DNA of 64,000 nucleotides, from the NCBI GenBank assembly GCA_044220955.1, contig JBGAQA010000032.1, forward strand, positions 1 through 64,000. Direction: 5' to 3'. Below, one piece after another: positions 45,001-48,000 of this stretch. Made by a program: the position numbers. Position 1 is the stretch's first letter. Every line of letters begins with the position of its first letter. Source of the stretch: Sandaracinaceae bacterium. Lineage in GTDB: Bacteria > Myxococcota_A > Polyangia > Polyangiales > Sandaracinaceae.

Positions 45001-48000
45001 GCGGTTGGCATAGAGGGGAGCGGTCGGCGCGAGCGCTCCCATCACGTGGACGAGGTCCATGAGGTGGTCGTAGTGCGCGTGCCCGCTCACGATCGCGCGG
45101 ATCGACGCCACGTCCACGTCGGCGAGGCCGCTCTCGATCGCGGGGACGTCGCTCGCGATCGGCGCGTTGAGCGCGACGTCGACGCCGTTCTGCCGGGTGA
45201 AGAGCGGCGCCGTCATCACGGCCTCGCCATCGTACGTCAGCACGAACCCCTGGACGCCGAGCGCCTGGACACGGAGCGCACCGGGCGCCGCGGCGTCGAT
45301 CGCGTACGCGTCGCCGCCGTCGGTGCCCACGTCGTGCGCGGCGTCCCGACCGCCGTCGTTGCCCGCGTCGCTCCCGGCGTCGTTGCCGGCATCGTCCGTC
45401 GCGCCGCCGCCGCCGCCGCACGCGAGCAGCGCGAGCGCACACGAGAGGAACAGGGTGCGCCGCATCGTGGGATGGTCGCGAAACGCGGTCGCGCGTGCAA
45501 GCACGCTACGGAATCGCGACGACGATCATCGCGCTCGCGTGCACGTCGCCGAGCGAGGCGCTCAGCAGGCCGCTGCCCGCCGCGACGCCGCGGACGCCGA
45601 TGCAGCTCGGGTCCGGGACACCGTTCACCGACGGCGCCGCCGAGGGATCCTCGACCAGGATCGACGGCAGCGCGAACACGATCGGCGCGCCCGCGACGAT
45701 GCCCCTGGGGCCGTTCGCATGCACGCAGAGCACGCGCGGCGTGGTGTCGAACGCCGGTCCGCCCGCGAGGATGTCGATGGAGTCGAGGCGAGAGACGACG
45801 GGTACGGAGACGATGCGCGTCTCGGCGTCGCGCACGACGCTCACCTCGAGCGTCCCCTCCGCGGGGCTGGTCAGCGTCGCGGTGAAGCCGGTCCCGTTCG
45901 GGCGCGGCGGCTGCCCCTCGACGTGCGCCGAGTCGTCGCCGAGCCACGTGTAGCCGAGCCCACCGAGCAGCTCGACCTGCACGCCGACCGTGGTCCCTGC
46001 CCAGATCGAGCCGAAGTGACCGTAGTGGACCGGCTCGTTCACCGCGGACGCGAAGGAGCTGAACGCGATGCTTTGGACCGTCTCGACCGAGAACCCTCGC
46101 GCGAGGAGCGCGCAGCCCGCCGTGGGGTCGATCACGCGCAGGACCGCGCTGCCCACGCCGGCCGCGCGGATCGTGATCGCGCCCGGGCCCGACGCCGTCG
46201 CCTCGAGGACACCCGTGTCGCTCGAGGTCACCTCGATCGCGCCCGCGTAGGTGGGCGCGTCGAGCGATGCGGCCGTCGCGAGCCGCACGTGCGCGACCGC
46301 GCCGCGCGCGAGATCTCCGGAGGCGAAGTGGGGCGTCGGGTCGGTCGCGACGAGCACCAGCTCGCCGGCCGCGTCGAACGTGCACGCCGGGGCGATCGCC
46401 GCGTCGGGGTACGACGACGTGCCGCACCCGAGCACCGAAGCGCAGAGCCCGATCGCGATCGCGGCGCGCATCCAGCCAGCATGCGGTGCGTCGTGCGCCT
46501 CGGCAAAGCGCGCCCCTTGCGGCGAGCCGCCCTGCCTCGCATCTTCCGCCGCCGATGTCGGACAGCGAGGCACGAGAGAAGCGATCCGCGGACGAGCGGC
46601 CCAAGGCCGTGGTCGTCGGCGTGCAGCTGCCCGAGGTGTCGGACGGCGACTTCGAGTCGTCGCTGCGCGAGGTGGAGCGACTCGCCAAGACGCTCGGCCT
46701 GCAGACCGTGGGTCGCGTGACGCAGCGACGGGGCGGGCTCGCCGTCGGCGGCGTGATCGGCGAGGGCAAGCTCGAGGAGCTCGCGGCGTGGACGGGCGGG
46801 AGCGGGAAGATCCCGTCGGGGGCTGTCCGGAAGAAGCGCCGCATCGACGTCGACGAGGGCGAGAGCGAGGACGAGAGTGAGAGCGAGGGCGAGAGCGAGA
46901 GCGAGGACGAGAGCGAGGGCGAGAGCGCGAGCAAGGGGCCGGCGCGGGCCAGCATCGTCCTGGTCGATCACGACCTCGCTCCCTCGCAGGTGCGCAACCT
47001 CGAGCGCGCCACCGGTGCCGAGGTCGTCGACCGCACGTCGATCATCCTGCGCATCTTCGAGCGCCACGCCCGCACCCGCGAGGCGCGCATGCAGGTCGAG
47101 ATCGCGCGGCTGACCTATCTCGCGCCGCGCCTCCGCGAGTCGGGCGGCGGCGACCGCCAGCGCGGCGGCATCGGCGGCAAGGGCGCGGGCGAGAGCTCCT
47201 CGGAGCTCGATCGCCGCCGCGTCCGCGACCGCATCGCCGAGCTCAAGGCGGAGCTGGTGAACGTCGAGCGCGAGTCCGCCGTGCGGCGCAAGCGCCGCGT
47301 CGCGCCCGAGGGAGGCCAGCGCACGGTCGCGCTCGTGGGCTACACGAACGCCGGCAAGTCGAGCTGGATGCGCCTCCTGACGAGCGGCGAGGTGTACGTC
47401 GCCGACGAGCTCTTCGCGACGCTCGACACGACCGTTCGCGCGCTCGCCCCGGCGACGAGCCCGCGCATCCTCGTCTCCGACACGGTCGGCTTCATCAAGA
47501 AGCTCCCGCACTCGCTCGTCGCCTCGTTCCGCTCGACGCTGGAAGAGGCGCGCGACGCGGGCCTGCTCCTGCACGTGGTCGACGCGGCGGATCCGGCGTT
47601 TCGCGCGCAGCTCGACGTGACGCGCACCGTGCTGCGCGAGCTCGAGGCCGACGACGCTCCCTCGATCGTCCTCCTCAACAAGATCGACAAGGTCGACGAG
47701 CCCACGCGCGAGGCGCTGCGCGCGGAGTTCGAGGGCGCGCTCCTCGTCAGCGCGCGCGATCCCGCGGACGTGAAGCGCTTGCACGCCGCGGTCGTCGCGT
47801 TCTTCGAGAAGGACACGATCGAGACCGAGCTCTTCGTGAGCTACACCCAGCAGTCCCTCGTGGGGCCGATCCGCGAGAGCGTGCGCATCCTCGAGGAGCG
47901 CTGGGAGAACGACGGCCTGCACGTGCGCGTGCGAGGGAGCAAGGTCGCGCTCGCCAAGCTCGAGGCGGAGCTCGCGCGGGGGCGATGACCGCGGTCCTCA

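Follow-up and report, generated by a model that had tools for sequence, protein, structure and literature searches.

Long simple sequence repeats (LSSRs) with units of 5-11 nt occur in certain prokaryotes (Mrazek, Guo and Shah 2007, as summarised in PMC4679880). In the summary given there, they are sporadic, lineage-specific tandem repeats for which slippage has been proposed as the cause, and the units found within genes are those of a length divisible by three, as is also the case for the (CTCGNN)n arrays of the sludge myxobacterium under study here (genome G000). The LSSR genomes named in the summary are those of Burkholderia, cyanobacteria, actinobacteria and Xanthomonas, with heptamers the commonest, whereas G000 comes from a myxobacterium, was assembled from a metagenome and has a single hexamer family (PMC4679880). 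Unlike the LSSR genomes, as far as they are described in that summary, G000 carries mosaics of three unit types differing at two positions, and its array growth is shown to be motif-selective. Marine Beggiatoaceae offer another parallel, with 169 sets of TAACTGA heptanucleotide direct repeats in a draft genome (PMC4679880). These share with G000 the presence of more than 100 arrays of one short unit, an intergenic enrichment near gene starts and an uneven distribution among relatives, but in the account given their unit is 7 nt long and AT-rich, nearly all of them are intergenic and a regulatory role is proposed for them, whereas the arrays of G000 are 6-nt and GC-rich, with a minority translated (PMC4679880).

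Myxobacterial proteomes contain an excess of low-complexity regions, and the dipeptide runs of G000 are regions of this kind (PMC6821194). The part of that study considered here works at the protein level and looks for a slippage bias of di- to tetranucleotides, with neither hexanucleotide families nor an intergenic majority (PMC6821194). Slippage does operate in a myxobacterium: of 39 indels in mutation-accumulation lines of Myxococcus xanthus, 27 added or removed a single unit of a simple tandem repeat. The loci reported there are mono-, tri-, penta- and 16-nt repeats, with no hexanucleotide family or burst (PMC11069108). Among the literature matches listed for prokaryotic simple sequence repeats, LSSRs and myxobacterial microsatellites, no description of the (CTCGNN)n family in myxobacteria was found. 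In eukaryotes, expansion of the hexanucleotide GGGGCC at C9orf72 gives rise to dipeptide-repeat proteins. It resembles the present case in its 6-nt unit, whose different frames yield different dipeptide repeats, but it is a single pathogenic locus with non-AUG translation, whereas G000 has many short in-frame tracts in ordinary bacterial genes. G000 joins the known repeat-rich prokaryotic genomes, with motif-selective growth as the new element, and the phenomenon looks like ordinary replication slippage in such a genome rather than a new kind of system.

The arrays were counted with a regular expression that fixes CTCG and leaves NN free, with thresholds of at least 5 and at least 6 units. The massive expansion of one hexanucleotide family reported in the initial annotation was confirmed, and its counts were reproduced exactly: 193 arrays of at least 5 units (merging to 175 loci, 14.7 kb) and 160 of at least 6 units (11,664 bp in total; NN = CT 918, CC 621, AC 349). 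Two genomes simulated from a 5th-order Markov model contained no arrays of at least 5 units, and only 153 and 170 of at least 3 units against 850 in the real genome, so the arrays are longer and more numerous than composition predicts, far beyond chance. Among perfect runs of at least 18 bp at periods 1-12, 496 have period 6, 63 have period 3 and no other period has more than 41. Similarly, TRF found 262 period-6 arrays genome-wide, of which 209 fall in four CTCG-type consensus motifs. With units in the 1-11 nt range repeated head to tail, the arrays can be classed as slippage-type simple sequence repeats (microsatellites or LSSRs). The main units CTCGCT, CTCGCC and CTCGAC read AGC, GGC or GTC followed by GAG on the opposite strand. 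Within arrays only unit positions 5 and 6 vary, whereas positions 1-4 are constant at 94-98%, even in 42 arrays classed as non-coding; plain neutral slippage with point mutation does not predict this restriction. Arrays lie at 51 of 602 contig ends, about 8%, and thereby limit short-read assembly of the lineage. The window analysed here, a stretch of 64,000 nucleotides from the start of one contig, opens with such an array:

1 to 62, plus strand: perfect (GCGAGA)10.3 array of the (CTCGNN)n family at the contig start (TRF, 100% matches)

This tract is in frame (ESES...) with an open frame listed at 3-527.

A further array of the window lies within a gene, together with the following features:

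46555 to 47988, plus strand: hflX, encoding GTPase HflX, 477 aa from the ATG at 46555 (Pfam, PDB 5ady, orthologues)
46792 to 46941, plus strand: lineage-specific insertion, ~50 aa (residues 80-129), in the N-terminal domain of HflX (alignment to Escherichia coli HflX)
46854 to 46932, plus strand: imperfect hexanucleotide array (NNC-GAG)13, with units AGC, GGC, GAC or AGT plus GAG, inside hflX
46882 to 46923, minus strand: array core of 7 CTCGNN units without interruption (regular-expression match, C227:46882-46923)

The core had been annotated as a CTCGNN array, which was confirmed at these coordinates with 7 units on the minus strand. The whole array has period 6 with 13.2 copies and 78% matches, or 88% at period 18 (TRF), and it translates in frame to ~26 aa of (Ser/Gly/Asp-Glu)n, SEGESESEDESEGE. 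Judged by both its domain order (GTP-bdg_N in two stretches, 2e-20; GTP-bdg_M, 3.9e-23; MMR_HSR1, 2.5e-16; Pfam E-values) and its similarity to a solved HflX (PDB 5ady, 5ady_6, E 9.7e-69), the host gene is GTPase HflX, with orthologues of 75-87% identity in five congeners. The start is putative, the frame being open from 46177 and the earliest listed start codon lying at 46267. In-frame TGA codons in the HflX matches of G005, G007 and G017 proved to be the natural stop codons.

HflX residues 18-79 align to residues 11-69 of the E. coli protein and those from 130 onward to 73 onward. The intervening insertion has a basic patch, KKRR, with an acidic tail after it, and the array fills the acidic part. 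The insertion is predicted to be disordered, residues 89-128 being modelled as coil with pLDDT below 50 (~30-36, AlphaFold2). All aligned orthologues carry the insertion at nearly equal length, but it is periodic only in G000 and its sister species G003; the orthologues in G001, G002, G004, G005 and G007 have non-repeat acidic sequence at the array site. The view that the array inserted a linker consequently does not hold for hflX. By comparison of the orthologues, the array instead rewrote part of an older, acidic, disordered insertion of ~50 aa, with a net gain of 3-9 aa. Such repeat tracts replace older linkers of like composition and do not invade folded domains, and they trace some of the low-complexity linkers that mark myxobacterial proteomes to a concrete source in the DNA. 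Linkers other than that of HflX did get longer.

The burst is not species-specific, as had been proposed. The earlier counts of 34-nt pattern windows stand (1152 in G000, 7 in G007 and, in four of the five congeners, 13-56). In the remaining congener, G003, 618 windows were counted, of which 367 show exactly the unit types of G000. Arrays are present in G003 at five of six orthologous loci at which both flanks were found, as well as in hflX and in the linker of DNA polymerase III tau, while G004 has an array at one compared orthologous site. Where G002, G004 and G005 have the same conserved flanks at orthologous sites, the sequence between them is not a repeat. Between anchored flanks, the U32 peptidase tract (C36:4489) is 87 nt and mixed in G000 against 66 nt of pure CTCGCT in G003, and the tract at C8:11250 is 66 against 58 nt. 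At C36:11733 the two genomes compared have CTCGCA/CT against CTCGCC/AC, a G003/G000 contrast in unit type, and lengths of 89 nt in G000 and ~110 nt in G003. Copy number at the same site thus differs by whole units between relatives. In the tau linker the repeats of the two genomes run in opposite orientation and consist of different DNA units, yet they encode a similar peptide, (Pro/Thr/Ala-Ser)n. The reversed-pattern control used in the initial annotation (202 windows in G000) is not valid, because CTCGCT read backwards is its own rotation and pure arrays therefore match both patterns; the same control gives 484 windows in G003.

Coding status around the arrays was assessed by our own calibrated codon log-odds test on 300-nt flanks, with no gene finder; this superseded a stricter 150-nt test that had returned only 10 internal arrays. 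Among 122 loci away from contig ends, 17 are coding on both sides in one frame, with no stop across the array in 14 of these, and 64 are coding on one side only, so that the earlier figure of 100 arrays inside gene calls was not recovered. Only 14% of arrays lie inside a single coding frame, compared with 48% of 3000 random positions, an approximately 3.5-fold depletion in gene interiors. Conversely, gene junctions are enriched: 17% of arrays have coding calls on both sides whose frame or strand does not match, as do just 3.8% of random positions. Gene 5' ends account for 30 loci, with 14 more at contig ends. A Pfam scan covered 69 stop-free ORFs of at least 150 aa, picked by flank calls from 767 candidates. 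Of the 38 that bear domains, 27 have the array on the N-terminal side of every domain, 6 have it in an interdomain stretch and 5 on the C-terminal side. No array in these 38 overlaps the best domain stretch, so the claim that no array falls inside a Pfam envelope holds formally, although the hflX array does split GTP-bdg_N into its two stretches. It also holds true that in-gene arrays keep the frame, are found in linkers or tails and are translated into dipeptide runs of the X-Glu or Ser-X type. In two TonB-dependent receptors, Glu-rich arrays lie ~20-25 aa upstream of the Plug domain.

Array growth is motif-selective. The CTCGNN family makes up 8.9% of the 9,694 perfect period-6 seeds of 12-17 bp, but 45% of runs of 18-23 bp, 76% of 24-35 bp and 89% of at least 36 bp, while AGCGCG has 1250 seeds and not one run of at least 36 bp. 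This selectivity correlates with single-strand folding: as 60-nt repeats, the two main motifs fold at -0.8 to -4 kcal/mol and most non-expanding motifs at -20 to -52, with a Spearman coefficient of 0.61 between self-structure and expansion (p 0.001, 26 motifs) under an energy model that is poor on G.A mismatches. Purine/pyrimidine asymmetry alone was dismissed as a predictor (Spearman 0.26, p 0.19). Self-structure is not the whole explanation, since ACGAGG and ACCACG hardly expand although their folding is as weak as that of the main motifs. Motif-selective growth is the sole feature here that could repay work on repeat stability in GC-rich bacteria.

We consider it probable that the arrays arose by motif-selective slippage in situ, were filtered by tolerance, began before the split from G003 and owe their frames to the codon usage of the seeds. 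The seeds would be ordinary codon-pair hexamers of a 72.5% GC genome, from which arrays may grow in place by replication slippage. Most GC-rich hexamer repeats would fold on themselves as single strands and be deleted, which is proposed as the reason for the selectivity; the nearly homopyrimidine/homopurine CTCGNN family would not self-fold and would escape. Arrays would then persist only where low complexity is tolerated, as in intergenic spacers, gene ends and already disordered linkers, the acidic part of the ~50-residue HflX insertion presumably being one that was overwritten. The process would be older than the G000/G003 split and have continued since, and reading frames within genes would follow seed codon usage. 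Growth in place is indicated by the many unlinked loci with unrelated flanks. No common motif was found in 150 upstream and 149 downstream full-length 100-nt flanks, whose base profiles are at background, and flank-to-flank BLAST matches are mostly to other, neighbouring arrays. A mobile repeat element (MITE or REP-like) or a carrier element was rejected, there being no flanks common to the copies.

The main competing explanation is that arrays land in all frames and that those encoding Arg dipeptides are purged, the frame spectrum being a direct signature of peptide selection, as the initial annotation had argued. All 12 stop-free arrays downstream of or between Pfam domains (11 from the Pfam scan plus tau) are non-Arg, for which p is ~0.0002 under equal use of six frames, and Arg frames occur often in arrays that follow a stop codon or lie upstream of a gene. 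The convergence of the tau linkers and the depletion of gene interiors point the same way. However, seeds that have not expanded already show the skew: in 2.98 Mb of confident coding DNA, non-Arg frames hold 90% of single CTCGNN/NNCGAG hexamers and 97% of two-unit seeds, because the codons that the other frames need are rare in G000 (AGA 0.4%, AGG 2.8% and CGA 5% of Arg codons; TCT, CCT and GCT 1-4% of synonymous codons). Origin from codon-biased seeds thus predicts the same 12 of 12 with no selection on the peptide. Since each Arg frame also requires a rare codon, amino-acid and codon effects are inseparable, and the preference of gene callers for frames with high third-position GC inflates in-gene counts for the favoured frames. 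We therefore regard purging of Arg frames as possible but doubtful; selection on the peptide survives in a weaker form, through the depletion in gene interiors and the tau convergence and not through the Arg-frame argument. For scans of high-GC genomes, both the frame skew of coding repeats and a reversed-pattern control can mislead.

Seed-derived slippage also has to be set against readings in which the arrays serve a function, reflect a repair defect or are not real. Maintenance by selection as promoter or leader spacing modules or as protein- or RNA-binding sites, in the manner of contingency loci, would suit the clustering at gene 5' ends and junctions and the Glu-rich tracts before the Plug domains, but it is unlikely given the absence of a common distance or flank motif among the arrays, the array-free orthologous sites in G002, G004 and G005 and the unlike unit types of G000 and G003 at the same site. 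Phase variation by frame switching was rejected, as a 6-nt unit keeps the frame; eight loci have same-strand flanks in different phases, which fits separate neighbouring genes. Loss of mismatch repair destabilises short repeats, and a mutator state could in principle have produced a general microsatellite burst. This is very unlikely here, with no observation in its favour: MutS_I is present in 29 of 31 genomes and MutL_C in all 31, including G000, G003 and G027, there is no expansion at periods 1-5 (each has 3 to 63 perfect runs) and growth is motif-specific. Bacterial MutS is in any case poor on loops of at least 5 nt, so hexamer tracts escape repair anyway. No cause of the lineage-specific onset was found. 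An artefact of metagenome assembly or sequencing is the least credible alternative, even though 51 contig ends carry an array and summed contig depth in the array bin reaches 2,511 to 22,087, against ~10-60 in neighbouring bins, a pile-up showing how similar the reads of many loci are. The arrays are real DNA. In run X1, possibly the source sample, a Logan contig made by an independent assembler bridges 46788-47187 with no differences. Arrays also stand at orthologous sites in G003 and G004, which were assembled separately, and they preserve the frames of genes that have recognised domains. In two other studies, contigs extend into the hflX array from both sides; in three of four runs none of the contigs listed bridges it, and no indels were recorded there, in contig-level runs where rare length variants would go unseen.

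Beyond this lineage, G027, which belongs to a different family, gives 1079 CTCGGA/GG/GT windows compared with 5 in its control, and the expansion units of G022 are CTCGGC/GT. It is conceivable, if rather speculative, that Polyangiales repeatedly undergo motif-selective hexanucleotide expansions with a constant CTCG/CGAG core and two free positions, through a sequence-preferring process other than generic slippage that steadily overwrites linkers of a disordered kind in essential proteins (HflX, tau, a U32 peptidase and a UvrA-like protein) and could be a main source of the myxobacterial low-complexity excess. A REP-like hairpin, which has no relation to the arrays, occurs at two orthologous sites in G002 and G005 only.

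The hexanucleotide microsatellite family (CTCGNN)n of this genome (G000; 7.52 Mb in 301 contigs, one of which, C227, is the window, and 72.5% GC) is real and large. The counts of the initial annotation were recovered exactly, with 193 arrays of at least five units, 160 of at least six (11,664 bp), NN tallies of 918 for CT, 621 for CC and 349 for AC, and 1152 pattern windows, where four of five congeners have 13-56 and the complete genome G007 has 7. After merging and extension the arrays form 175 loci (14.7 kb). No array of at least five units arose in two genomes generated by a 5th-order Markov model, versus the real 193. 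Perfect runs of at least 18 bp number 496 at period 6, 63 at period 3 and at most 41 at any other period from 1 to 12, and 209 of 262 period-6 arrays reported by Tandem Repeats Finder (TRF) fall under just four CTCG-type consensus units. An assembly artefact is ruled out by an independent assembler's contig (from run X1, possibly the source sample itself) bridging 46788-47187 without difference, by contigs of two other studies that enter the hflX array from both sides, and by array recurrence at orthologous sites of separately assembled relatives. While this observation stands, three main inferences drawn from it, namely a species-specific burst, inserted linkers and selection seen in the absence of Arg frames, are each weakened by the comparisons below.

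In the window, the array flagged by the initial annotation lies within hflX:

46555-47988, plus strand: hflX, 477 codons, with domains GTP-bdg_N, GTP-bdg_M and MMR_HSR1
46854-46932: extended array, period 6, 13.2 copies, 78% matches (88% at period 18; both TRF)
46882-46923, minus strand: uninterrupted CTCGNN x7, the core of the flagged array

The plus strand reads (NNC GAG)n, NNC being AGC, GGC, GAC or AGT, in frame with the gene, whose product matches solved HflX structures (5ady, E 9.7e-69). Aligned to E. coli HflX, residues 80-129 fall between residues 69 and 73 of that protein and thus form an insertion of ~50 residues within the N-terminal domain, which is why GTP-bdg_N comes out as two stretches in Pfam. 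Residues 89-128 have a pLDDT <50 and no secondary structure in an AlphaFold2 model built on a 10-sequence alignment (mean pLDDT 67.7). An insertion occupies the same place in all 12 orthologues aligned (from five congeners and seven other genomes in the family and order) and is acidic in nearly all; gene lengths differ by just 3-9 codons among the orthologues compared. It is non-repetitive in congeners G004, G005, G002 and G001 and in G007, e.g. DDDEASDEDELEAEGDADD, and among the aligned orthologues is periodic only in G000 and in G003, its closest relative at 87% identity, which has AGC/AAC-GAG repeats at the same site. Since the orthologues already have an acidic insertion of similar length, the microsatellite rewrote a pre-existing disordered acidic linker, in a manner common to G000 and G003, rather than inserting one as first proposed. 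Like many relatives, G000 also has a second, more distant HflX paralogue (C221:60130-60963; 43% identical over residues 131-410), and of the two it is the window's that has the acidic insertion.

Fifteen further loci on four G000 contigs were compared with the five congeners. In G003 both flanks could be located at six of the 15, and at five of these six an array is present there too. The five include the U32 peptidase, C36:11733, the UvrA-like gene and C8:11250; C36:2960 is the site without one. Unit counts and unit types in G003 differ from those of G000. At the site of C277:17491 a run of about nine CTCGCT units occurs in G004, and G001, G002 and G005 have non-repeat sequence at every site with both flanks located. 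The G000 linkers of the U32 peptidase and the UvrA-like gene are about 110-145 nt longer than those of G002, G004 and G005, so arrays can lengthen linkers as well.

The DnaX/tau linker, at a contig end and comparable by a single flank, also holds an array in G003. After a conserved SAPVEPR the linker has (CCC/ACC-TCG)n, encoding PS/TS, in G000 and (CCG/GCG/ACG-AGC/AGT)n, encoding PS/AS/TS, in G003, where the core is turned the other way round and Ser is drawn from another codon family. Judged by these sequences, the two arrays must be independent in origin, and they encode similar peptides in a linker already rich in Ala, Pro, Ser and Thr. The G004 linker has three APAPTL repeats (18 nt), and those of G002 and G005 are Ala/Pro-rich and non-repetitive. 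Small repeats outside the family, such as that of G004 tau (L174) and a (GGGCAC)4 in G001 (L092) at the site orthologous to C8:13870, occupy the same permissive sites as arrays. In addition, a hairpin-like element of REP-like appearance (GCGCGGCCCCCTCTCCC ... GGGAGAGGGC) sits in G002 and G005 (L093 / L091) exactly at the sites orthologous to C8:11250 and C8:13870, in the PUFA-synthase region, where G000 and G003 have hexamer arrays; because of this element, some 'in-gene' array sites of that region may be gene junctions.

The burst is therefore not species-specific, since G003 has the same family and arrays at orthologous sites. G003 has 618 CTCGNN windows (367 when restricted to G000 unit types), pure CTCGCT makes up most of its matches listed, and the 170-bp C36 array is matched by at least 30 of its contigs at 82-98% identity. 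The reversed-pattern control is invalid for this family: reversing CTCGCT gives TCGCTC, which is the same unit rotated, and pure arrays match both patterns as a result. The reversed-pattern counts of 202 (G000) and 484 (G003) are these mirror-symmetric CTCGCT arrays themselves, and G003, earlier credited with a burst of its own, therefore shares the burst of G000. A 4.3-Mb genome of another family in the order (G027) has 1079 windows of CTCGGA/GG/GT versus 5 for the reversed pattern and is an independent burst with other variable bases on the same CTCG core, a likeness that may reflect the search pattern, in which CTCG was fixed. Two other relatives have 54 windows versus 4 (G022; units CTCGGC/GT) and 183 versus 16 (G008). 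Hexamer bursts recur sporadically in the order, and their repeated, independent appearance is of lasting interest.

The position of arrays relative to genes was assessed with a codon log-odds score trained on 1591 long ORFs rich in GC at third codon positions (median 0.65 per codon for true frames; 95th percentile at most 0.25 for wrong frames), the coding frame being called from 300 nt on each side of a locus with the array itself excluded. Contig ends account for 53 of the 175 loci, arrays being present at 51 of the 602 ends. Among the other 122, 17 (14%) have both flanks coding in a single frame, 14 of them stop-free across the array, 21 (17%) lie between coding calls of unlike frame or strand, 64 are flanked by coding sequence on one side and 19 on neither, and one was not callable. 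The same test at 3000 random positions gave 48% single frame, 3.8% differing calls, 38% one flank and 9.5% none; arrays are therefore ~3.5-fold depleted in gene interiors (14% versus 48%) and ~4.5-fold enriched at gene junctions (17% versus 3.8%). The 100 arrays formerly placed inside gene calls were not reproduced by this test; gene-calling programs that favour GC at third positions will tend to draw CTCGNN arrays into their calls.

A Pfam scan of the 69 stop-free ORFs of at least 150 aa holding an array in the flank-called frame found a family at E <= 1e-5 in 38, with the array overlapping a Pfam best stretch in none of the 38. The array is N-terminal to all listed domains in 27; the others are:

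between domains (6): HflX; a Ser/Thr kinase with PEGA domain; a UvrA-like ATPase; the U32 peptidase; two PUFA-synthase ORFs
C-terminal (5): a response regulator protein; an H+-pyrophosphatase; a prepilin peptidase; a DUF3999 protein; an HTTM protein

In DnaX/tau a (Pro/Thr-Ser)n array runs from residue ~519 to the contig end, beyond domain III. Only 12 arrays are demonstrably within translated sequence, because these lie between or after domains; the 27 N-terminal cases are putative, and two of them are out of reach of an upstream start because a stop stands one codon before the array. In each of two TonB-dependent receptors (C225:51409-54756 and C287:26793-28790) an array rich in Glu (ETET..., GEGE...) precedes the Plug domain by about 20-25 residues.

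The scarcity of Arg frames had been read as selection on the peptide. Of the six frames of each unit type, three encode Arg and three do not, and every Arg frame requires a rare codon (AGA 0.4%, AGG 2.8% or CGA 5% of Arg codons; TCT 1.3%, CCT 3.7% or GCT 2.5% of their amino acid's codons). In 2.98 Mb of confident coding DNA, 100,294 of 111,190 single CTCGNN/NNCGAG hexamers (90%) and 4,289 of 4,414 two-unit seeds (97%) already lie in non-Arg frames. For the three main unit types, two-unit seeds comprise 259 X-Glu, 88 Ser-X, 75 Leu-X and 15 Arg frames, and the two-unit spectrum resembles that first reported for the arrays. All 12 demonstrably translated arrays use a non-Arg frame and equal frame use is rejected, but the seed model predicts 12 of 12 as well, so the skew is no proof of peptide selection. 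A coarser selection, in which arrays are tolerated solely in linkers and tails, is supported by their confinement to such places, their depletion in gene interiors and the convergent tau peptides.

The arrays are mosaics (CTCGCT 38%, CTCGCC 26% and CTCGAC 15% of units) in which neighbouring units are identical in just 56%; purity has a median of 0.6 and reaches at least 90% at only 26 of the 175 loci. In motif-blind TRF detection, unit positions 1-4 are constant at 94-98%, position 5 is C or A (82/16%) and position 6 is C or T (52/44%). The same restriction to positions 5-6 in 42 arrays classed as non-coding, and thus even outside genes, is of lasting interest, as is the motif-selective growth of the arrays. 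The three family motifs make up 8.9% of 9,694 perfect period-6 seeds of 12-17 bp, rising to 45% of 280 runs of 18-23 bp, 76% of 113 of 24-35 bp and 89% of 103 of at least 36 bp; the commonest seed, AGCGCG, falls from 1250 to 50, 3 and 0 over these classes.

Nothing points to a mobile carrier, because the array flanks compared share no common sequence. Loss of mismatch repair was likewise rejected as the cause: MutS_I and MutL_C were found in G000, G003 and G027, and periods 1-5 are not expanded. The most likely mechanism is ordinary slippage, which would make the arrays, with tolerance for low-complexity sequence filtering them. Folding of 60-nt tracts of 26 motifs under DNA energy parameters gave -0.8 to -4.0 kcal/mol for the two main motifs and -20 to -52 for most non-expanding ones, and growth followed the stronger strand's folding energy (Spearman 0.61, p 0.001), although ACGAGG and ACCACG fold weakly yet do not expand. 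We infer that in so GC-rich a genome most hexamer tracts may form hairpins and get lost, and that the nearly homopyrimidine/homopurine CTCGNN family could escape this loss. A downstream flank of 56-99 nt (92-96% identity) is common to the arrays at C10:20058, C282:7952 and C36:14991, and might stem either from a small repeated element or from an overlap between contig ends.

The family belongs to a known kind, the genomes rich in 5-11 nt long simple sequence repeats that occur across phyla, in which the repeats in genes are those with a unit length that is a multiple of three (Mrazek and colleagues, 2007, as cited in PMC4679880). PMC4679880 itself describes a Beggiatoaceae draft genome with 169 sets of a heptamer repeat. 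According to PMC6821194, no other bacteria are as enriched in low-complexity protein regions as myxobacteria, and the indel spectrum of Myxococcus xanthus is reported to be dominated by single-unit microsatellite indels (PMC11069108). No description of a CTCGNN hexamer family in myxobacteria was found in the literature searched.

The window holds several other tandem repeats. A perfect (GCGAGA)10.3 array of the CTCGNN family stands at the very start of the contig (1-62), in frame (putative translation ESES...) with an open frame at 3-527; translation of this frame may actually begin at a GTG at position 90, which would exclude the array. A 225-bp array at 29419-29643, with nested periods of 18, 21 and 42 (consensus GCGTCGGGCGGGACGAAC...), is unrelated to the hexamer family and overlaps several long open frames. 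Short arrays lie at 32292-32367 (period 18, 4.2 copies) and 45309-45395 (period 12, 7.2 copies, 66% matches).
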